From a virus, in the IMG/VR virus record IMGVR_UViG_3300029199_000002: 64,000 bases of DNA. One strand, given 5' to 3'. This document shows, piece by piece, positions 40,970 to 62,428 of the stretch. The stretch's first letter is position 1. Each line of letters begins with the position of its first letter. The translations under genes were made by a program, and so were the position numbers. A model generated the notes under the pieces. The model did no database searches and had not been told where the DNA came from. It saw only the letters and a program-made list of their open reading frames with translations.

Positions 40970-41323
40970 TTAAAGCGGGTTGAAGTCCTTTTCGAAGGAG
41001 GCTTTGAGTAGATAGTCGTTGACGTCGTTATAGACCAGACCTACTGACTTGCAGACGACCTGGTGGACATCTCCGCTAATAGGATGGGTCCAGAGGAACG
41101 CCCTGAGAGACTTCCTGGCGCGAAGCCATTGGTAGGTGGACTCTGCTGTCACCTTATCCAGTGACGACCACGACAAGCTCCACTTGTCGCGGATGTGGTT
41201 TACTCCTGCCGGCTGACGAAGGGTATACCCGTCCCCGAACCGGACCTCTGTGACGCTGACGTCTGGCTCGTCCTCGGAGAAACCCCAGTCAGGGGTGTCT
41301 AGGTCAGGGAACTTTTCCATCAT
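40970..41323 (-). CDS. minor tail protein M (distal tail)
   Basis: V...RFGDGY..R...G.N, W.LSW, AFLWT.P. Confidence 0.9.
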   Translation of the reverse strand: MMEKFPDLDTPDWGFSEDEPDVSVTEVRFGDGYTLRQPAGVNHIRDKWSLSWSSLDKVTAESTYQWLRARKSLRAFLWTHPISGDVHQVVCKSVGLVYNDVNDYLLKASFEKDFNPL

Positions 41324-44300
41324 GCTCTCCTTTGTGATTTGATCCAGGTGTCAAGAGTGCCCCCAGGGCGAGTCTGTTCTTTCATCGTGGCGACGACGAT
41401 GTTCTGGAGGGTTTTGCCTAGCTCCCGGGCCTTGCTTGCTTCATCGGCACCATTCCCCTCACCTCCTTCGCCCTGCTGGACGGTTATTTGAGGGGCCAGG
41501 GTGATGTTGTACTCCGCACTGCCTGACAGCTTCTTCGCCGACTTCTCCCGGCTGGTGACGTTGGCCGGACCATGAACGATCTCAGGGCCGTATTCGCCGA
41601 CGATGCCGTAGGAGTTGTAAGGGATGAAGCCGCCGTCGTCGTAGGCGCCGGATGAAGAACCGCCAGGCTTGGCTCCTGACATCTCGGCGATAGCCAACCC
41701 GCCAACCAGTGCGGCGGAAGCGTAACCCTGTGCGGTGATAAAGGTAGCCAAGCTCATGCCCAGCACCTTGGTGGTGTCCCCTGGGATCGCCATAGCCTGT
41801 GCAGCTGCCAGATGGGTGTACATGAGGATCTGCGCAATTGCTAATGCCTTCTGGGCTACAAAGGCAGCTTTCTGCGCGTTGGTGGAATCTTCCCCGACGC
41901 TGGCGAACATACCGAGGATGTTCTCAGCTGTCCCAAGCATCGAGATCATTGCCATCTTGCCCATCTGCTCGCTGTAGGCGGCCCGGTCTGCATCAAGCTT
42001 CATGCTGGCCCTGCCGAACTGATCATGAGCTGCCAGCAGCGCAGTGTTCTTTTCTTGCTCTAGTGCCTTCAGGCGTTCTGCGTGCTCCTGTTGTTGTAGA
42101 AGCTCGGCGTCTAAGGCTGCCTGCCTGACCTCAAACTCACGATTAATACGGTCAGTGTCGTTCTCGTACCCGGTGAAAAGGTCATCCTTGCGTTTACCAA
42201 ACTGGCCGAGCCCCTGCGCACGCTCAATCTCGGTACCCATCCAGTCGCTGAATGGGCTCGAGGACGCATCCCCCATCTGCAGGTTCGCAGTAGGCAGGCC
42301 ACTGGTAGCCTCGCTCACTGCGCGCTCGCTGATCGTGTCCTTGATCCGCTTGTACTCGGCCAACGAAACATTGTTCGCTTTCAACAGTCGGTTCAGCTCG
42401 ACCATGTCGTCGAGGGTGGAAGAGAATGGAGAGTCCAGGTACGAATCGCGGAGATTCTCCAGCGACTGGTAGTTCTTGTTCTGTTCGATCGCCAGCTCGT
42501 AGTGTGCCTTGCGGAGGTGCCAGATCGCCTGAGCCTTCTCCTCTGCGGTGATCTTGCCGCGCTTGTGCAGCAGGTTCAGCTGCCCGGTCTTTTCGTTGAC
42601 GTCGTCCATCGAGGCGCTAAGCGGGTCGAACTGTTTGTACAGGGCGTCGTAGGTTGACTTAGCAGCTTTCAGGTCTTTGGACAGCTGAGACTCTGTGGAA
42701 CTACTCTTCTTGGGTTTATTTAGCCGCTCCTCTATGCCTTGGATGGCTTGAAGAAGGCGCAGCTCTTCCTTCAGCCTGTCAGCTTCCTTAACGGACGCCT
42801 CGGCTCCTAGTGACCCGCCTTCGGCGATCAGAGAGTTGTTGATCACCCTCATCAGCATGATGTCGGCGAGGTCTTCCTTCAGAACCGCCAGGTTCTCGAT
42901 GTCGGTGCGGTGGAAGTCCTCCAACGCTCTTCGGGCTTCCTCCAGCGTCTGGGCCTCTTTCTCAGCTTCCGCCTGGAGTTCCGCAATGAGCGTCACCGCC
43001 TCAGCTCGTTTGCTGTTAAGGCGGTTGTATTCGGTCTGGCCTGGGCGGTTTTCAAGGTTCCCGGACTCGATAGCTTTGGCGTCCAGAGTCTCCATGGCTC
43101 TGAGCTCGGCCTCCACCCTAACCAATTCCCCTCGAGCACTGGCCAGCTTCTGCGTTGCGCTAGCTGACTTCTCAAGTTGTTTGGCCAGCGCCTCCTGGTC
43201 CTGAGCGGCTGCGTCCCTCTTCGCAATGTCTGCCAGGGCTACCAGGTTTCTGGACACTTGGACAGCCTGGGTAGTTACAGAGACCGATGCGGCGACCGCG
43301 GCCTGCCATTCTTCCTTGGCTTTTTCCAGGTTGGCAGAGTCTGCAGAGGTGACGGAGCTCGAAGCCATTCTCGCGTCAAAGGTGCTCTTCGCCTCAAGGT
43401 ATTGCTGGTAGGTCGTAGCCACTCGCTCAGCCGCTGCAACCTGGTCTTCCATAGCCTTAACGGAGTCATAGGCTGTGGCGCCCATTTCCTCCAGCTTCTT
43501 GTTGGTGGCGTCGATATGGGAGTTGAAAGTCGATATGCGCAGGTTGTTTGAGTCAAGGGTGACTTGTAGGGACTTGCGAGTTTGTTCATCCAACCCAGAG
43601 GCATCATCCGCCAGCGCACCACTGATGCGTGAATTCATACCCTGCAGTTCTGTTACGCTGGCCTGGTCGGCTTTCACGTTCTCGCGGAGGGCTTGCTTCT
43701 CCTTCTCCAGCGAGACCTGCTTCATCGCGTCCTTGAGGTTCTCGTAACTGGATTTCAGTGCATCAGTTTCGGTTCTTTGATCGATGATGTCCTGGCGCGC
43801 ATCGTCGCCGAACGCGGCCTTACCTGCCTCGTAGATGCCCCATACCAGCCCCGCCCACCCAAGTGCTTTGGACAGCGCTGACATAGCTACAGAGAGTCCC
43901 GCGACGGCGTTCCTGGCACCTATGGCGGAGCCTGTAGTAAGTGCCAGTGTCGTGTTCAGCGGGTGAAGGGCAGCGTTCTTAGCTCTCGCTGCAACTGTGC
44001 TGGCAGCAAGGGTGTAGTTGTACCCTTTCAGGCCGACTACGGTCTCGGCCATTCTAGTACGCAGTACGCCAGATATCTGACCAAGCCTGGTCATGTCAGA
44101 CGCCAGCGCACCGAACAGGTTGCCGGCGACAGCCACGGCCTTCAGGGCAGCGAACCCACCTACTACATATCCGATGACCTGTGCCAGATTCTCAGCGCGC
44201 TGGAGGACTAGGTCCAGCTGGGAGATGGTCGAGCCGTCAGCTAGCGTTTCAATCGGCTGGGTCAGTTCAACGAGCCAGGTTGCCAGACGCATCGACCCTT

Positions 44301-46593
44301 CTCGCATCCGGGTTTCATAGGCGTCGAAGGCAGTGATCTGCACTTCCTGGAAGGCTGAAACTACTTGGTTCCAGTCCTTGCTGAGAGTGTCTTCGATCTT
44401 TGAGCGCATACGCTCGGCGGCGCCGGCTACGTGGTCGAGCTGGTTTCTCAGGTTGACTAGGTTGTCAGACTGATCGATAAGGGCTGCGACAGGTGAGGTG
44501 GCGTAGACGCCGACTAGGTCCTGGATGGCTCCTAGGCGCTCTCCGCCGGATACGCCGGCCAGAGCCTTGTTCAGCTGTTTGACAATGTCTACCAGTCCGC
44601 GGGTCTTGCCCTCGGCGTCCAGTACGGATATCCCGTACTGCTCCATCATGTCTGCGCCCTTCTTGGTCGGGTTCAGTAGGCTGACGAACAGGCGTCGTAG
44701 TGCCGTGCCGGAGCGGGACGACTTGATGCCCGAGTTGGCCATGGCCTCAATGGCGGCGACGGTATCCCGCATCGAGATGCCAGCTGTCTGCGCTGCAGGG
44801 CCTGCGTAGGTCAGCGAGTTGGCCAACTGCTCGATAGTGGTGTTGGAGTTCGTGACTGCCGTGGCCATCACGTCTACGACCTCTGTGAGGTCAGACGCCG
44901 ACTTGCCGAACGTCATCATCACGTTGGTCGCGATATCGGCGGACTGCCCCATGCCGATGTTGCCTATCATGGCCAGATCGAGTGACGGGCGCAGAGCCAG
45001 TACAGCGTCCCCGGCAGAGAGTCCTGCCATACCCAACTCATTGAGGCCTTGAGCAACTTCAGAGGCGGTGAACGCGGTGCTCTGTCCAAGCGCCCGGACC
45101 TGCATCTCCATTGCTGCCATGCTGCCGGTGTCAGACATCCAGGCAGGATTGGAGGAGTTCATGATCGCCCCGGTCCGTGCCATTATTGCGCTGAACTCTG
45201 TGCCGACTTTGACCGAACTACGGAGGGCCGCTGCTACTGCGTAAGTGGACGACGCAGCGAGAATGGTGGCACTGGTGTACATACCTATGCTGGTGTGCAG
45301 GCCAGCAAGACCGGCCCGCATCATAGCCGCTGATTGAGAGCCGGCCACCTGAGAAGCGTTGAACCGGCGGGTGGCGTTTGTGAGGCCTAGCAGTTCAGCA
45401 GTGCTCAGAGCCAGTAGGCGGTTGTACCGCTCCTGGTCTGCAATGCTTTTCTTCGTCTGGGCTATTTCACGGCCATAGCTGCCTGCCAGGAGATCTTTCT
45501 GGGCCTTCAGGCGGGCTAGCCTGTCGATTTCCACCTGCCGGGCCTGGCTCAGTTCCTTTTGGGCCTTGCTCATGCCATGGGCAGAGCGCGCCTCGTCCAG
45601 TAGCGCCTCGGAGGCCCGCTTGTTGGCTTCTCTGGAGGCTTCTGCCCGTGCAGTTGCTTGGGCCTCCGCCTGCGTCATCCTGTGTAGGGCGTTCGCAGCT
45701 TCCTGGGTAGCTTGGTTCTTCGCCCGGTACACTGAGGCCTGCCGACTAGCTTTGGCGATGAGCTCAGCTTCTGCTTGTGACAGTAGGAGTGCAGACTGGC
45801 GTGCACGCTCATCCGACTGAATCTGCCGTCGACGTTCTGCGATCTGGCGCTGGATCAGCGTGATCTCCTGCTCCTGTCCTCCGTGTAGGCTGGCCAGCTG
45901 GCGTTCTAGGTCGTTCAGCTTGGCGCGGCGCTTCTCGTCCTCCTGTACTGCACGTCGGGTGGCGGACAGCCGCACCTCTGCGCTGGCCGCTGCTCGCCCC
46001 TCTGCCGTGTCGAGGTGGTGGATCGCGTTCTCAAGCTCAACTGTCTTGAGTCTGCGCTCCTGGTCGTGATTCAGGATGCGGCGGTTGGTAGCCAGCTTGG
46101 ACTTTAGCCGCTCATTGTACTGGCCCTCCGCCGTGAAGGCGGATTTGATCGACTGAACCAAGAAGCGGTTCTGGTTGGCCATCTCACCGCTAAGGTTCGC
46201 CGACCGGGCTGCCCATTTTACGTAACTGGACTTTGCTGATGAGTCCTTCAGCAGTCTCTCTAATTCCTTCAGTTCCCCGTTGTATGCCCTAGCCTGCGTA
46301 GTCAGCTTGAGGTTATCCATGGCTATGCCTTGGAAAAGCTGCTGTGCGGCCTGACGAGACCGTTTCATGGACTCGCCGGCAACCTCAGAGGACACCCCTA
46401 CCCGCTCAAGCGCCCGCTCTAGGTCTGAGTAGTGCTTGTGCATCTCCCTCATTAACTGTGCGGCAGCTCCTGCCGGCTTGCTGGAAGATGCCTGGACCTG
46501 GTCCAGAGCAGTTCCCAGGGCCTTAGTTTTGGCTTGGAACTCAGCCAGCTGCCGTAAGGCTTCTGAGAAATCTACGTCAAACTTAGCGGCCAT
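41320..46593 (-). CDS. tape measure protein (1757 aa)
   Basis: long helical Ala-rich protein with TP901-type core repeats, C-terminal GAYDDGG; position. Confidence 0.93.
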   Translation of the reverse strand: MAAKFDVDFSEALRQLAEFQAKTKALGTALDQVQASSSKPAGAAAQLMREMHKHYSDLERALERVGVSSEVAGESMKRSRQAAQQLFQGIAMDNLKLTTQARAYNGELKELERLLKDSSAKSSYVKWAARSANLSGEMANQNRFLVQSIKSAFTAEGQYNERLKSKLATNRRILNHDQERRLKTVELENAIHHLDTAEGRAAASAEVRLSATRRAVQEDEKRRAKLNDLERQLASLHGGQEQEITLIQRQIAERRRQIQSDERARQSALLLSQAEAELIAKASRQASVYRAKNQATQEAANALHRMTQAEAQATARAEASREANKRASEALLDEARSAHGMSKAQKELSQARQVEIDRLARLKAQKDLLAGSYGREIAQTKKSIADQERYNRLLALSTAELLGLTNATRRFNASQVAGSQSAAMMRAGLAGLHTSIGMYTSATILAASSTYAVAAALRSSVKVGTEFSAIMARTGAIMNSSNPAWMSDTGSMAAMEMQVRALGQSTAFTASEVAQGLNELGMAGLSAGDAVLALRPSLDLAMIGNIGMGQSADIATNVMMTFGKSASDLTEVVDVMATAVTNSNTTIEQLANSLTYAGPAAQTAGISMRDTVAAIEAMANSGIKSSRSGTALRRLFVSLLNPTKKGADMMEQYGISVLDAEGKTRGLVDIVKQLNKALAGVSGGERLGAIQDLVGVYATSPVAALIDQSDNLVNLRNQLDHVAGAAERMRSKIEDTLSKDWNQVVSAFQEVQITAFDAYETRMREGSMRLATWLVELTQPIETLADGSTISQLDLVLQRAENLAQVIGYVVGGFAALKAVAVAGNLFGALASDMTRLGQISGVLRTRMAETVVGLKGYNYTLAASTVAARAKNAALHPLNTTLALTTGSAIGARNAVAGLSVAMSALSKALGWAGLVWGIYEAGKAAFGDDARQDIIDQRTETDALKSSYENLKDAMKQVSLEKEKQALRENVKADQASVTELQGMNSRISGALADDASGLDEQTRKSLQVTLDSNNLRISTFNSHIDATNKKLEEMGATAYDSVKAMEDQVAAAERVATTYQQYLEAKSTFDARMASSSVTSADSANLEKAKEEWQAAVAASVSVTTQAVQVSRNLVALADIAKRDAAAQDQEALAKQLEKSASATQKLASARGELVRVEAELRAMETLDAKAIESGNLENRPGQTEYNRLNSKRAEAVTLIAELQAEAEKEAQTLEEARRALEDFHRTDIENLAVLKEDLADIMLMRVINNSLIAEGGSLGAEASVKEADRLKEELRLLQAIQGIEERLNKPKKSSSTESQLSKDLKAAKSTYDALYKQFDPLSASMDDVNEKTGQLNLLHKRGKITAEEKAQAIWHLRKAHYELAIEQNKNYQSLENLRDSYLDSPFSSTLDDMVELNRLLKANNVSLAEYKRIKDTISERAVSEATSGLPTANLQMGDASSSPFSDWMGTEIERAQGLGQFGKRKDDLFTGYENDTDRINREFEVRQAALDAELLQQQEHAERLKALEQEKNTALLAAHDQFGRASMKLDADRAAYSEQMGKMAMISMLGTAENILGMFASVGEDSTNAQKAAFVAQKALAIAQILMYTHLAAAQAMAIPGDTTKVLGMSLATFITAQGYASAALVGGLAIAEMSGAKPGGSSSGAYDDGGFIPYNSYGIVGEYGPEIVHGPANVTSREKSAKKLSGSAEYNITLAPQITVQQGEGGEGNGADEASKARELGKTLQNIVVATMKEQTRPGGTLDTWIKSQRRA

Positions 46594-56377: not shown

Positions 56378-58126
56378 CTACCAGCCGGTGCGGTGTACAG
56401 ACTCCCTGCCCTTCCCTGCCGCAGACCCCACCTTTACCTTGCCCGTGATCGGCGGCGCGCCAATGACCACGCTCAGGCCCAGGTCTTCGATAACCATCGC
56501 GGCGATGCTGCAGTAGTTTAGAGAGTGCACCCAGTGGTCCGTGTCAGAGGTCTTTGTGAACCTCTCCACCATGTCTCCGTCCGCCGCACGGGCGCGGATT
56601 TTCTTCGTGGTCTTCAGGTGTTCGAAGATCTCCGACGTGATCTCCTCACGCATCGGGTAGTGGATCTCCCCTGCGTTGTGCTTGTTCAGCAGCACCGAGA
56701 GGGTCTTGGTACGGTCAGCGTTGATCACCATGCCGTCCGCCTTCTCATCGATAGGCAGGATTCCGCTGACCTTGTTCACGTAGACTACGGCGCGGATACC
56801 TAGCCGGGCACCGACCAGGCTGTTGACCAGGGTGATATCCGGGCCGGCGTCGATGCAGAGCATCGCCATGCGGTAGTAGTCGAAGCGTGCCAGCACCTGG
56901 CCGGTGGCCGGCTCCTCTCTGGTGTTCCGGATCTTCTCGGCCCATACCACGTGCCAGTGCTTACCTACCTTGGCCTTTACTGTCAGGTGGCAGGTCTTGC
57001 CTACGTCCATACCTCCAATGGTCTGGCAGGTAACCGCCCATTGCTGGAAAATCCACAAGTCCACGTCAGATAAGCGCTGGCGGTGCTCTTTTGTCACCGT
57101 GAAGCTGTTCTCAGCATCGCTGTAGGGCAGCCCTATGACGAAGTTGTAGAAGTCGCTGCGCAGCGGGTAGTCGCCCATCTGCTTGATGATTGCCGGCGGA
57201 GTGTTGTACGTAGGCACGTCCCAGGGGTACACCTGATAGCTGTGGTCCCATACGTCTGGCCGCTTTGGTACCCACATCCTGCGCTCTGGATTCAGTAGAG
57301 ACTGCTGCAGGTCGTTGCCGCAGTCGGGGCACTTGATGTAAGCGTCCTGGATGCGGTGTCTAGTGTCAGAGACGTCTTCCCTTGTGAACTTGGTGATGCT
57401 GTCGTCGAACCCAGGCACGATGAAGTCATGGTCGAAGTCTGGCAGCACCCATTTGTGGCAGCAGCGGCACTTGACCATGTAGTAGCGCTGGTCGCCTGCA
57501 TTGAAGCCGGCATCCACCCCATAGTCCTCTACCGTTGGAGTAGAGAAACGCATCCGCATACCCCGGTTGCCCATCTCGTCAACCAAGCTTGCGTGTCGTA
57601 GACGGGAGTTCAACTTGCCGAGGATGACCTCGTTAGAGAAGTCCACCTCATCGCTGATGATGACCTCGGCGGGGACCGAGATAGCGCTGTTCGCACCGAA
57701 CGAGCCGGTGATGTAGAGGGTACAAGTGCCGATCTTCTTCTGGCTGGCAGAGTTCTGGGCCTTCTGGACCAGTCCACTGTAGAAGTCTGACTGATCAATT
57801 GCGCTGTCGAACCGGTCCTTGGAGAACGGCATGGCCATGTCACGGGTCGGCAGCGTGAAGATGATCCTGATGTGGCTCATGGTGGCGCCCATGGCGATGG
57901 TCTTCTGGACCATCACCTCTGACAGGCCTACCTGTGAGCACTTGCGAACGTCGATCCGAGAGCGAGTGTCGCGGATGATCTCCTGCTGAAATTCGTGGTC
58001 CTTGAATGTGTAGGGCTTGCCATTGACCCTGCCGTATTTGAGGACGACCTTGTCCAGCTCCCGCATGCCTTCCTCTCGATTGAGTTGCATTCGTAACCGG
58101 CTGGCGGCGGAAGCAGATTCAGACAA
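56378..58126 (-). CDS. terL: terminase large subunit (lambda GpA-like)
   Basis: KCSQVGLSE Walker A, ISDEVD, FSTPT, CxxC..CxxC zinc finger, GMDVG, CIDAG, DHW.H. Confidence 0.9.
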   Translation of the reverse strand: MSESASAASRLRMQLNREEGMRELDKVVLKYGRVNGKPYTFKDHEFQQEIIRDTRSRIDVRKCSQVGLSEVMVQKTIAMGATMSHIRIIFTLPTRDMAMPFSKDRFDSAIDQSDFYSGLVQKAQNSASQKKIGTCTLYITGSFGANSAISVPAEVIISDEVDFSNEVILGKLNSRLRHASLVDEMGNRGMRMRFSTPTVEDYGVDAGFNAGDQRYYMVKCRCCHKWVLPDFDHDFIVPGFDDSITKFTREDVSDTRHRIQDAYIKCPDCGNDLQQSLLNPERRMWVPKRPDVWDHSYQVYPWDVPTYNTPPAIIKQMGDYPLRSDFYNFVIGLPYSDAENSFTVTKEHRQRLSDVDLWIFQQWAVTCQTIGGMDVGKTCHLTVKAKVGKHWHVVWAEKIRNTREEPATGQVLARFDYYRMAMLCIDAGPDITLVNSLVGARLGIRAVVYVNKVSGILPIDEKADGMVINADRTKTLSVLLNKHNAGEIHYPMREEITSEIFEHLKTTKKIRARAADGDMVERFTKTSDTDHWVHSLNYCSIAAMVIEDLGLSVVIGAPPITGKVKVGSAAGKGRESVHRTGW

Positions 58127-59393: not shown

Positions 59394-59675
59394 TCAGGCT
59401 TCGACGCGGATCTGGTCCGGGTTGGCGCTGTAGGTCAGCACGGTGCGGGCCGGAACTTCTACTTCGGTTGCGACGACGCCGCCCTTGATGGTGCGCGCTG
59501 CGTACTGGCGAGCACGGAACTTTCCGAAGCCACGCAGGGTGAGGTGGCCGCGATCGAATGCCAGCTCACTGATGCCAGCCAGGACGGATTCCACAGCGGT
59601 CTTGGCAGCCACTTTGGAGATGTCGGCGTGGGTGGCGACGAAGTTGATCAGGTCCTGCTTGGAGGCGTTACTCAT
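59394..59675 (-). CDS. HU/IHF-like DNA-bending protein
   Basis: SKQDLI..VA..ADISK..A..AVE.V, LTLRGFGKF, R, VPAR. Confidence 0.9.
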   Translation of the reverse strand: MSNASKQDLINFVATHADISKVAAKTAVESVLAGISELAFDRGHLTLRGFGKFRARQYAARTIKGGVVATEVEVPARTVLTYSANPDQIRVEA

Positions 59676-60057
59676 TTTGGGTGGCCTTTTAAGTTCTTGA
59701 GGTGGTTCTTGTGGGGTTATGCGTTGGGTCTAGGAGACTTGCGAGAGTTCCCGCAGGTGGGCAAACCCATATTGCTGTACTTACAGGTTTACAGAGTATA
59801 TCGGGTGGAGGTGGGTGTAAAGGGGTGTCGGTTTGGTGGTCGTTGAGGATGGGTGTAGAGGGTGAGGCTTTCGGTGGGGGTGATGAGGTCGTGGGCGGGC
59901 TGGGGGTGGCGGGCGGTGGGGGATGTCGGGGTGTATAACGATATAAGCCAGGTTTGGTTTTTCGTAAATTTTTGGGCGCGGAGGTAGGGGTGCAGGTGGT
60001 GTCCTCTATGTATAAAAAGAGGGTCCGGGGCTGTCTGAAATTTTCGCAAATTGACGC

Positions 60058-60086
60058 TTGACTCTATGTTTCTATTCCCGCATAGT
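60058..60086 (+). promoter_or_regulatory. sigma70 early promoter TTGACT-17-CATAGT
   Basis: direct match at a compositional boundary. Confidence 0.7.
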
Positions 60087-60092
60087 TCGTCC

Positions 60093-60780
60093 CAAGCAAC
60101 GCAAACAACGGTTGCCTAGCCAAGCCCTACGGGGTGAGGCGCAAGGCTCCAGCCTTGCCCGTTCTTTAAACCCGCTAGTGTGTCGCTCAACCGAGCGGCC
60201 TGTATTGAGTCACAACGGCAGAAGCTTTGCCGTTGCGGATAACCTTGCCAGTGGTCTGACTGCTGGCCAGCGCTACCTAACCCCGTCTATATGTCTGGCA
60301 ATGGCTGGCAAGGCGACGGGCAACGGAAGCAAGGCGCAAAAGGGGAAACGCCAGACGGTCTAGGCCTCGGGAGACAAAGAAATCAGCTTTTCAGCCTATG
60401 GGTATGAAGGGCGGAGCTTTGCCTAACGATCGGAGTGATCGGCACGCACTGCATTGGGCATCCTGTATTTACAGTTTTTCTGCTTTACAGCTTGCCGGAT
60501 CATTAAAAACTTATCGCTTTGCCAGACTATCCGCGCCCTAGTTGCGCCCATTGTTTGCCGCTATCTGCTATCCGTTGCCATTGCCTTCGATAGCGCACAA
60601 GAAAGCCGGCAGACGCTACAACTAACGGCCTTATAGCGGCAAAGCATGGAAACGGAAACGAGGCAGGCGGTAGCGTCTGCCTCGACTAGCTAAACCATCC
60701 CAGCGGCTTATACAAAGGGCATTCCACTAGATTGCCCTTTGCCGTAACCCACTAAAGAAAATCAGAACCTAAACGAAAGG
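60093..60780 (+). ncRNA. candidate large structured non-coding RNA / 5' leader
   Basis: ~700 nt with no convincing ORF, many perfect 8-12-bp local and long-range complementary pairs. Confidence 0.4.
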
Positions 60781-60790
60781 GAACCCCACT

Positions 60791-61510
60791 ATGAAAAGGC
60801 AAGCCACCGTTATCACCATCGCCGGTAAAATCATCACTGCCCAACAAGTCGCAGCATTCAACAAGTCGTTTGCCGGTCAATCTGAAATCATTACCACTTG
60901 GGCGAACTATTGCACCATTCATGCAGTGGCTCACAACAACATCGACCCATTGAATGCCATGCTAAACAATGCCGCATTTCGCCTCACAAGCGGCAAAGCG
61001 TCAAAACTTGGAAAAGAGGTATTCTCTTTCATTAAGGCCCACGCGCCCCAGATTCAAGAAGACACGAAAACCGGGCGCTTTATCGTCAAGAAAATGAAAG
61101 TAGAAAACCCGCAATTCAAGCACTTTGCGGACCCTTCAAACCTTGACGACGACGGCAAGCCAGCCATTGTCGAGCCGGGCGACTTTGCGCTTTCCTTCGA
61201 TGCTTGGCGCGTTCTGGAAGAGCCGAAAAAAGAGGAAAAGCCGGCCACATTGAAAGCCGCAACGGTCGCCAATCAAGTGCAAAAGGCATTGGACGCGATC
61301 AATGGCAAGCTTTTCACTGCGTCCGCCGATGAGGCTCGCCAGTTGGCCGAACAATTAAAAAGCTTGTTTGTAACGGTCGATTTTATTGCCGGCCAGCTGG
61401 CAAAGTCAGAAATGCCACTAGACACCGATAAAGCAGCCGAACTGCTGAAAAGCGGTCAAGCGGGCAAGTCGAAGCGTGCCGGTGGCAAGGTAGCGCCGGT
61501 TGCTGTCTAA
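60791..61510 (+). CDS. first early protein (239 aa), unknown function
   Basis: AAAGGG RBS, AT-richer codon use, followed by terminators. Confidence 0.85.
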   Translation: MKRQATVITIAGKIITAQQVAAFNKSFAGQSEIITTWANYCTIHAVAHNNIDPLNAMLNNAAFRLTSGKASKLGKEVFSFIKAHAPQIQEDTKTGRFIVKKMKVENPQFKHFADPSNLDDDGKPAIVEPGDFALSFDAWRVLEEPKKEEKPATLKAATVANQVQKALDAINGKLFTASADEARQLAEQLKSLFVTVDFIAGQLAKSEMPLDTDKAAELLKSGQAGKSKRAGGKVAPVAV

Positions 61511-61517
61511 CCCAACC

Positions 61518-61540
61518 AGCCGCCTTCGGGCGGCTTTTTT
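61518..61540 (+). terminator. intrinsic terminator
   Basis: AGCCGCC-TTCG-GGCGGCT followed by T tract. Confidence 0.92.
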
Positions 61541-61561
61541 ATTTCGCGCGCGCGTGCGTAT

Positions 61562-61584
61562 GCCGGCCTAGTGCCGGCTTTTTT
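61562..61584 (+). terminator. second intrinsic terminator
   Basis: GCCGGC-CTAGT-GCCGGC followed by T6. Confidence 0.75.
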
Positions 61585-61739
61585 ATGCCCGCGAAAAGGT
61601 GAAACGGCGCTGAAAAGTTCCAAAAAACTCCTGAAATTTCCCAGAAAATCTCCGGAAATAGCCAGAAATCTCCAATAAGTATAAGAAAACGGTTCGCCAA
61701 CCACATGACGTAACCAATCCCACAAAGGAAACCCACACC

Positions 61740-62174
61740 ATGCAAACCAACCAAACCGAGCAGGATCTTAGCCTGCCCAATGTCTACTTCGTCACCGTTT
61801 CGTCTGCTATCACTGGTGAGACCCACCACCTGTATATCCCGGCGGATTTCAGCGGTTCAGCATTCCGGAAAGCACAGAACATCTGTGCCGAAAGATTCCA
61901 CTTCCGCCCCTTCCGCTCGAACAGCACGGTGAAAATGCGCCGGCTGAAGCTGTCCGACTATCTGGAGAATCCGGATGCGCTCCGGGCTGCACTTGTCACA
62001 GCCGCCGAACTCGGCGAGCGCGACACTCTTTTGGCCCTCCGCCGCAGGCCGCAGGAAATCGCTGCAATGCTCAGTGTGGCTGAACAGCCGGTGATCGACT
62101 TCGATGCCGTCCTGGGCCGTCTAAAGGAGCAGCTGTCCACCCTCGACAGCCTGCCTGCAAAGGAGGCTGTGTAA
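61740..62174 (+). CDS. hypothetical early protein (144 aa)
   Basis: AAAGGA RBS. Confidence 0.8.
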   Translation: MQTNQTEQDLSLPNVYFVTVSSAITGETHHLYIPADFSGSAFRKAQNICAERFHFRPFRSNSTVKMRRLKLSDYLENPDALRAALVTAAELGERDTLLALRRRPQEIAAMLSVAEQPVIDFDAVLGRLKEQLSTLDSLPAKEAV

Positions 62175-62428
62175 TGGGCCGTCAGGTGAGTGCGAGTCTC
62201 GATGATCTGGCGCTGGCAGGGTGCCTCGTACAGATCGCCTTTTTCGTCGAGGACGACGAAGGCACCGCGGTGGTCGTTCGCAGGGCCCCCGTGGACTTCC
62301 CTGATGGCAGCCGCCTCACCAGCGATGTGGGCGACTTCCTCGTCTTCGACTGCCGCAACCGGCAGAGCGCGAACTTCTGGGCGCTTGAGCAGCTCATCGA
62401 CCTCGGTGTGCCCTTCACTTGGTCGTGA
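62174..62428 (+). CDS. hypothetical early protein (84 aa)
   Basis: TAATG overlap, AAGGAGG RBS. Confidence 0.75.
   Translation: MGRQVSASLDDLALAGCLVQIAFFVEDDEGTAVVVRRAPVDFPDGSRLTSDVGDFLVFDCRNRQSANFWALEQLIDLGVPFTWS

Follow-up and report, generated by a model that had tools for sequence, protein, structure and literature searches.

In a 64,000-nt stretch of viral DNA, hereafter the window, which is part of the 69.8-kb IMG/VR virus record IMGVR_UViG_3300029199_000002, a stretch at positions 60058–60790 is flanked by a gene for an HU-like protein on the minus strand (59394–59675) and by an open reading frame (ORF) for a 239-residue protein, p239, on the plus strand (60791–61510). On balance, we consider this stretch to encode a member of a previously undescribed family of large (~650–700 nt), multi-domain structured phage RNAs that is co-transcribed and functionally coupled with p239. 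A first-pass annotation, made from the letters of the window, had proposed a large structured RNA or RNA switch here, and a large structured RNA 3′ of a conserved early promoter is indeed supported by homologues, covariation and strand asymmetry. On the plus strand, compensatory substitutions preserve the helices of this RNA, some of which join sites separated by 150–600 nt, and we have little doubt that a real structured RNA is specified by that strand.

The stretch is conserved in 21 other phage and prophage loci of the Pseudomonas/Stutzerimonas type, which together with the window make up the 22 loci of clades A and B. The window encodes a long-tailed phage, with a tape-measure protein (41320–46593) and a lambda GpA-type large terminase (56378–58126), and a search with the terminase yielded eight IMG/VR relatives, in which the stretch is ~68–70% identical, that is, as conserved as the flanking genes. 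A conserved hairpin pattern added three further metagenome loci; the remaining one of its four metagenome matches, L040, was a chance match and was rejected. Homologues of p239 (n = 64) led to a prophage of Stutzerimonas stutzeri (L044) on a 623-kb contig, to the more distant clade B, and to six later loci. These six, unused in model building, match the 5′ model with E from 1e-6 to 7e-29 and the 3′ model with E from 5e-16 to 2e-23, in colinear order. The layout does not differ between loci. On the opposite strand there is an HU-like gene, in some loci separated from the rest by other genes; then follow a conserved G-rich DNA block, a TTGnnn-17-TAnnnT promoter, a gene-free stretch of 660–740 nt, a spacer that is open, rich in A and contains a Shine-Dalgarno sequence, and lastly p239. 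The window shows the same synteny, with the HU-like gene on the minus strand followed by the sigma-70 promoter, the RNA, p239 and terminators.

The copy in the window is the most divergent member of the family (52–64% identical to the others). An nhmmer profile of 10 relatives, built without the window, matches it at 60144–60775 on the plus strand (E = 6.6e-84), and a covariance model of the 3′ domain (R1), also built without it, matches 60515–60645 on the same strand over positions 1–130 of 130 (50.3 bits, E = 4e-9). A wider model (R2), whose training set includes the window, scores it at 89.8 bits. Consensus pairs are compatible in the window in 134 of 199 cases, and the core helices retain 9/10, 9/9, 11/12, 7/8 and 6/6 pairs despite their altered sequence. 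Outside this set of loci the searches gave nothing further: blastn of 59700–61600 against 50,697 phage records found no match, a p239-only locus search in IMG/VR and a search of 185,579 reference genomes with the RNA pattern and the terminase returned nothing, and the 18 loci that a two-block DNA pattern retrieved from IMG/VR beyond the known relatives were all chance matches. The sample of origin of the record is a gas-well/rock metagenome; closer relatives are present in wastewater-type samples (contigs of four runs, probably DNA).

A multi-domain fold is supported by compensatory change. RNAalifold predicted 190 pairs from nine sequences, and 34 of these show double compensatory changes. 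Circularity was avoided by predicting structures from single sequences and then scoring how the other sequences treat the predicted pairs, the controls being the same pairs with partners slid by 1–3 columns. With L010 as the reference, 81% of doubly changed cells stay paired versus 30–49% in the slid controls, and across four reference sequences there are 22–31 compensated pairs against 3–9. In the set of 21 sequences, 32 of the 78 retained pairs are compensated. The helix 60197–60205/60358–60366 has six of its nine pairs compensated and 95% of cells paired; in the 3′ domain (60515–60645), the paired fraction of cells is 94.5% and double changes occur in 16 of the 40 pairs, compared with 0–4 in slid controls, and none of 500 shuffles reached this count. 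Thermodynamic stability points the same way, with folding z-scores from −4.3 to −10.4 in all 11 members tested.

The assignment to the plus strand follows from the distribution of covariation. Helices predicted only on the plus strand contain 5–14 clean compensated pairs and those predicted only on the minus strand 0–4, and this holds in 10 of 10 sequences; the promoter, p239 and the terminators are on the plus strand as well. The strand is left undecided by counts of G–U versus A–C combinations in shared helices (30 versus 17, a weak difference) and by RNAalifold energies, which are equal on both strands. The same data bear on an explanation at the level of DNA, by which the region is a cos/pac region, a set of protein-binding palindromes or a single-stranded structure formed at injection or replication, and the RNA fold is a by-product. 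Such an element would suit a region that adjoins the terminase module, folds below shuffles on the minus strand too, and carries at the tip of its central hairpin an operator-like palindrome that is also found inverted. Duplex DNA sites, however, need no compensated pairs between positions 150–600 nt apart, and in the covarying helices, which are those of the plus strand and barely those of the minus strand, G–U pairs are conserved. Moreover, a conserved promoter points into the region. Contig ends of relatives, relevant to a reading of 60040–61680 as a terminal repeat or genome end, do not coincide with the RNA; some fall 130–160 nt past p239, and the prophage copy is internal. We consider a DNA-level element very improbable as the explanation, and the structure in single-stranded DNA during injection that the first-pass annotation had offered, like its put-like antitermination RNA, is without specific support.

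A missed or degenerate protein gene was also considered and rejected, since codon-phase variation is flat, gaps break the frame and ORFs are not conserved. The proportion of variable columns by codon phase is 0.55/0.54/0.51 in the stretch, compared with 0.43/0.30/0.79 in p239 of the same genomes, and 149 of 187 gap runs in the alignment of the stretch are not multiples of 3. The longest ORFs change both place and frame between members, and L004 has a single ORF of at least 35 codons. The first-pass annotation had remarked that the stretch has no ORF with a convincing ribosome-binding site; among the relatives, no ORF is conserved.

The high self-complementarity that drew attention to the stretch is real. 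All ten word pairs listed in the first-pass annotation are present at the positions given for them, nine as exact reverse complements and the tenth as hairpin 60659–60684, in which 11 of 11 positions pair with one G–U. Perfect inverted 9-mers number 13 versus 1.4 expected, 8-mers 29 versus 5.3 and 10-mers 5 versus 0.33, with none of 500 dinucleotide shuffles as high; coding controls of the same length contain 0–2 inverted 9-mers. The minimum free energy (MFE) of the stretch is −272.3 kcal/mol, and it folds better than dinucleotide shuffles, with z = −4.8 on the plus and −3.5 on the minus strand (−4.9 and −2.6 with 40 shuffles). One overused word accounts for part of the excess complementarity: there are 12 copies of TTGCC, where 1.3 are expected, and four of GGCAA, an overuse peculiar to the copy in the window, while the stems of the relatives are made of GCGCC/GGCGC instead. 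Because this word is reused, many alternative 9-nt matches can be drawn in the window.

For the same copy, the MFE structure used as a reference keeps 37% of doubly changed pairs, as do the controls, so there is no covariation in it and the MFE fold of the window is not the fold of the family. Several of the helices proposed from the single sequence fare accordingly in the relatives. Hairpin 60213–60235 is a family feature, paired in 100% of the relatives' cells. The long-range pairs 60293/60519 and 60297/60577 are kept in 38% and 54% of cells and the supposed pseudoknot, formed by 60554/60633 and the 12-mer 60608/60670, in 26% and 58%; none of these is above background in the relatives, and the pseudoknot lacks comparative support. 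These long-range pairs and the pseudoknot are peculiar to the window copy and arise from the TTGCC/GGCAA word. The suggestion of mutually exclusive folds stands in one half, the local hairpin 60659–60684 being family-wide; the competing pairing is not conserved above background and is not seen in clade B by eye. The family uses instead the pairs 60516–60521/60640–60645 and 60553–60566/60600–60614 together with this local hairpin.

The body of the RNA, ~665 nt, corresponds to 60087–60753 on the plus strand, the strand of all features described below; its 5′ end is placed by the promoter and its 3′ limit by the last conserved hairpin, and it is supported by the profile, alignments A2 and A3, covariation and z-scores. 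The RNA would form a compact fold with a closing helix, a 5′ domain, a central hairpin that carries the operator-like palindrome, a 3′ domain and two terminal hairpins. The closing helix pairs 60087–60094 with 60647–60655 (consensus columns 1–7/666–673); it is 93% paired in the relatives and 6/6 compatible in the window, and its covariation support is weak because there is little variation there. Its 5′ strand is followed in the family anatomy by three small hairpins and by an invariant single-stranded motif, GTTCTTTAAACC at 60161–60172 (motif 1), of which TCTTTAA is common to all clades and lies ~80–105 nt past the −10 element. Pairing of motif 1 with the A-rich spacer before p239 (UUCUUUAA with UUAAAGAA) can be drawn in some members and was rejected, as L004 and L007 show no covariation there by eye.

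The 5′ domain is enclosed by 60178–60184/60441–60447 and by the best-supported helix of the RNA, the long-range helix that pairs 60197–60206 with 60357–60366. The latter is 9/10 compatible in the window despite a different sequence, and shows the exchanges CG/UA/GC, UA/CG, UA/AU and GC/UA among nine sequences. Within the domain lie two conserved hairpins, 60214–60234, with 9/9 pairs in the window and compensatory changes, and 60383–60415, whose internal G–U pairs are kept in all clade A members and whose core (60390–60396/60401–60408) is 100% paired in 21 sequences with three compensated pairs. The central hairpin (60453–60500) shows stem covariation of the GC/CG and GC/AU types and carries at its tip the operator copy noted earlier, TGTATTTACAG at 60464–60474. 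It is followed by single-stranded motif 2, GGATCATTAAAAAC at 60497–60510, always ~270–300 nt before the start codon; its counterparts in clades B and C resemble motif 1 (e.g. CTCTTTAACA).

The 3′ domain (60515–60645) is a closed multi-helix structure of ~40 base pairs, supported by the covariance model match and the pair counts. Two hairpins without U tracts complete the RNA. The GC-rich local hairpin 60659–60684 is present in every member with a different sequence and has at least four compensated pairs (columns 627–652); the terminal extended hairpin 60702–60753, with a core at 60713–60741, has 18 pairs, of which 8 are compensated and which are 97% paired in 21 sequences. An unstructured A-rich spacer (60754–60790) then contains the ribosome-binding site of p239, with a mean unpaired probability of 0.68 in the window. 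Over 17 members, the region of the Shine-Dalgarno sequence and the AUG has a mean unpaired probability of 0.58 versus 0.34 for the RNA body, and it is the more open of the two in 16 of them. Members differ by insertions and replacements: L041 has a 44-nt insertion, itself a hairpin, in an unpaired linker (alignment A3, columns about 400–444), and in L006 and L007 one hairpin is replaced by another. Judged from the sequences, insertions of the L041 type behave as RNA expansion segments typical of structured RNAs.

Transcription of this unit can be predicted from the DNA. A sigma-70-type promoter, with −35 TTGACT (60058–60063), a 17-nt spacer and −10 CATAGT (60081–60086), is the only plus-strand sigma-70 match in a consensus scan of 59400–62200, and in each of clades A, B and C the aligned DNA has this TTGnnn-17-TAnnnT layout too. 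The lone minus-strand match of that scan, at 61409–61380, lies within p239, and none lies within the structured stretch. Transcription is predicted to start a few nucleotides past the −10 element, at about 60090–60095, and a transcript made early by host RNA polymerase would comprise the RNA, in its 5′ part, and p239. No intrinsic terminator was found between 60200 and 60790, so none separates the RNA from p239; the unit ends 3′ of p239 at two tandem intrinsic terminators (61518–61535 and 61562–61578, plus strand), which are 93–95% identical in L004, L008 and L010.

It is likely that the RNA and p239 form a functional unit. The p239 gene, with codon periodicity and 64 homologues, lies directly 3′ of the RNA at all loci, and a gene-free gap of 880–1100 nt lies upstream of the p239 homologue at each locus that carries one, including those at only 26% identity. 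No Pfam, PHROG or NCBIfam family matches the protein. Its AlphaFold model, which is confident (pLDDT 80.8), has no match in PDB or AFDB (Foldseek, AFDB clusters), and VIA-align wide and the ESM Atlas gave no assignment. In BFVD, Foldseek returned matches of probability 1.0 (E from 1e-4 to 5e-4, TM 0.35–0.49), all to uncharacterised proteins of T7/phiKMV-type phages, namely Cronobacter A24, Pseudomonas TL, Caulobacter Lullwater, Ralstonia phiAp1 and Vibrio ICP2. Judging by these models, the p239 family may reach well beyond this phage lineage. The protein is mildly basic (pI 9.3) with a conserved basic tail.

The position of the RNA as the 5′ untranslated region of p239, with no terminator between, is also what would be expected of a regulatory leader acting in cis. 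Such a switch or attenuator would respond, through its fold, to a signal or a protein and adjust the level of p239 or of downstream read-through. In all clades motif 2 and the terminal hairpins stand at a fixed distance from the start codon. A switch, however, requires an expression platform, and none was found: there is no terminator before p239, the two 3′ hairpins have no U tracts, and the Shine-Dalgarno sequence and the AUG are predicted to be open. With neither a terminator nor a helix that sequesters the ribosome-binding site to connect the RNA with p239, we regard a simple switch as unlikely; a Rho-dependent or kinetic mechanism would escape this test. The hairpin with a UUCUUU tract at 60141–60169 scores as a weak terminator, and in clade A the segment 60608–60619 resembles the 5′ arm of hairpin 60659–60684 and could compete for its 3′ arm; this alternative, as noted above, was not seen by eye in clade B, and conservation is lacking for the pairs of the pseudoknot too. 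Mutually exclusive folds and a put-like antiterminator would both be versions of such a leader. The tandem terminators 3′ of p239 could be a target for antitermination, but the genes past them have their own phased A-tract and −10-like region upstream, and an antiterminator is therefore not required. Furthermore, no known aptamer in Rfam 15 is matched, and 650–700 nt with ~190 pairs is far above the sizes of known riboswitches and T-boxes. Taken together, a regulatory leader is an unlikely account of the whole. We tentatively favour an autonomous RNA or ribonucleoprotein (RNP) over a switch, with slightly less than even confidence, given that the RNA is so large, that its multi-domain architecture is closed and that the ribosome-binding site is open and lies beyond the fold; no other step of our interpretation is as weak.

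Another possible role is in replication. A promoter-driven structured transcript could remain as a persistent hybrid from which phage DNA synthesis is primed close to the genome end, the models for such priming being ColE1 RNA II and the R-loops of T4 oriF and oriG. The size and elaborate fold resemble those of RNA II, the promoter is strong and of the host type, and the locus adjoins both the packaging module and the conserved G-rich block of DNA. A Pol I-type DNA polymerase and a primase are among the phage's own genes. Against these stand a transcript that runs on into a translated gene, the lack of any antisense promoter inside the stretch in the sigma-70 scan, and a region in which no iterons or AT-rich unwinding element were seen. 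We find an origin RNA quite improbable.

Several points weigh against the interpretation as an RNA that works together with p239. The transcript and its ends are predictions from the DNA. The exact fold of the window's copy is uncertain: when forced into the family helices it lies 29 kcal/mol above its own MFE, the relatives being 9–27 kcal/mol above theirs. The sequences come from one phage lineage, and their cell counts are not independent events; the pair counts of the 3′ domain come from alignments fitted to the model, which favours the result somewhat. The tip of the central hairpin behaves as a DNA site, so that part of the conservation is at the DNA level. Finally, neither an RNA-binding domain nor a known fold could be recognised in p239, and the RNP idea rests on adjacency and co-occurrence.

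Comparison with Rfam 15, which the first-pass annotation had suggested, gave no match in the stretch of the window at E up to 10; there was none at the gathering score in the window and four relatives, nor at E up to 1 in L010, L045 and L061; the relatives compared span clades A, B and C. Hence, the RNA is not GOLLD, ROOL, OLE, HEARO, a group I or group II intron, RNase P, tmRNA, 6S RNA or a known riboswitch. Few RNAs of bacteria and phages exceed ~500 nt and have an intricate fold that is conserved, and each class has proved, or is suspected, to be biochemically sophisticated, as ribozymes, RNPs or RNA cages. GOLLD and ROOL share with the present RNA a length of ~600–800 nt, a multi-domain covarying fold, carriage by phages and prophages, and a function that is not established. 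The RNA of the window differs from them in that it does not lie beside tRNAs (none were found in the window), makes up the 5′ portion of the mRNA that encodes a conserved protein, and belongs to phages whose hosts are Gammaproteobacteria of the Pseudomonas/Stutzerimonas type.

A closer parallel in gene arrangement is OLE, a ~600-nt structured RNA directly upstream of a protein gene and co-transcribed with its partner oapA. There is no homology between the two RNAs (Rfam) or between the proteins, and OLE is chromosomal in extremophilic Firmicutes, whereas the RNA considered here is part of a phage early unit. By analogy, we think that it works like OLE, with p239 as the partner and a putative RNA-binding protein; it would be a functional RNA in its own right that is tied to p239, most likely as an RNA partner or scaffold. 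Other systems are similar in fewer respects. The HK022 put RNAs are promoter-proximal structured RNAs of a phage early transcript with terminators downstream, but they are two-stem units of ~70 nt, and the present RNA is ten times larger and multi-domain. ColE1 RNA II is likewise long (~550 nt), highly structured, promoter-driven and untranslated; here the transcript leads into a translated gene, and no antisense partner or origin features were found. The C4 antisense RNA of P1 and P7 (immI leader) is a regulatory RNA in the leader of a phage early operon, but it is ~80 nt long and matches Rfam RF01695, to which no match was found in the window. A true C4 RNA is carried by the relative L006 (186–286, minus strand; 57.6 bits, above gathering), ~4.5 kb beyond p239 in the early direction.

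The family may have distant members in cultured phages. In clade C, which includes the Pseudomonas phages Lana, PMBT3 and UAntarctica, p239 is 26–35% identical, and at the corresponding place a promoter of the same type is followed by a gene-free stretch of 664–767 nt, in which two TCTTTAA motifs occupy equivalent positions. These stretches show covariation of their own (51–59% versus 30–41% in controls). Their homology to the RNA of the window is only hinted at: the 5′ model gives weak colinear matches (L067 at E = 1e-3 and four more at E = 0.1–0.9), nhmmer is marginal, and the 3′-domain model has no match in the clade. Gaps of ~900 nt upstream of the p239 homologue are unannotated in the published records of Lana (NC_048166, 84535–85440) and PMBT3 (NC_047902, 82097–82999), as well as in UAntarctica, and term searches of PMC8421299 and PMC7368026 found no mention of such a gap. 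The gaps of Lana and PMBT3 probably contain an analogous or distantly homologous large RNA. In L046 (2627–3124) and L047 (2594–3124) of the same clade, the gene that diverges from the RNA promoter carries the Pfam domain PF21825 (‘Sequestin’).

A bolder extension is possible, though we hold it to be doubtful. The RNA would represent a new class of giant ‘ornate’ phage RNAs, core to the whole lineage of ~80–88-kb Pseudomonas-type siphoviruses, lytic and temperate, and transcribed from the promoter next to the packaging end, the first one that the host recognises. It would be a catalytic or scaffolding RNA, either in an RNP with p239 or in a ROOL/GOLLD-like RNA-only assembly, acting in host take-over, genome protection or replication, and the gaps of Lana, PMBT3 and UAntarctica would contain its distant homologue. 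Whatever the mechanism, the family is tractable: because of its clear promoter, fixed protein neighbour, prophage copy in a sequenced Stutzerimonas stutzeri strain (assembly GCA_001705635.1) and analogous element in three cultured Pseudomonas phages, experiments are directly possible. A widespread phage protein family without a known fold, that of p239, also gains a likely role in an RNA-associated early module.

The palindrome at the tip of the central hairpin belongs to a dispersed set. The word TGTATTTACAG, in full the near-palindrome CCTGTATTTACAGG, occurs 17 times in the window versus 0.7 expected, mostly in intergenic positions (656, 3140, 5327, 11861, 12838, 17212, 17237, 22407, 40950, 47457, 52534/52535, 55972, 58647, 59776, 60464 and 62987). 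Several copies lie 15–36 nt before start codons, and two are embedded in long perfect palindromes. The set looks like operators for one phage DNA-binding protein, by analogy with the scattered C1 operators of P1. In L004, L008 and L042 the copy in the central hairpin has the opposite orientation, in agreement with the idea that a site in DNA for a dimeric protein, and not the sequence of an RNA loop, is under selection. By binding this site, a repressor could keep transcription from entering the 3′ half of the RNA and p239.

The DNA on both sides of the unit has features of its own. Just 5′ of the RNA promoter, a block at 59968–60035 consists of an A/T run followed by GGAGGTAGGCG-like and AAAAAGAGGGGGCGGGG-like segments; it is found at the aligned place in all clades and could be a cos/terminase site or a divergent regulatory region. 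Further upstream, at 59800–59935, there is a G-rich insertion with GGGTG-type direct repeats, which is present in this phage only and corresponds to an alignment gap in the relatives. Past the tandem terminators, phased A-tracts at 61600–61680 (GAAAA, CAAAAAA, GAAATTT and others, ~10–11 bp apart) precede the −10-like TATAAG and probably represent bent DNA upstream of the next promoter.

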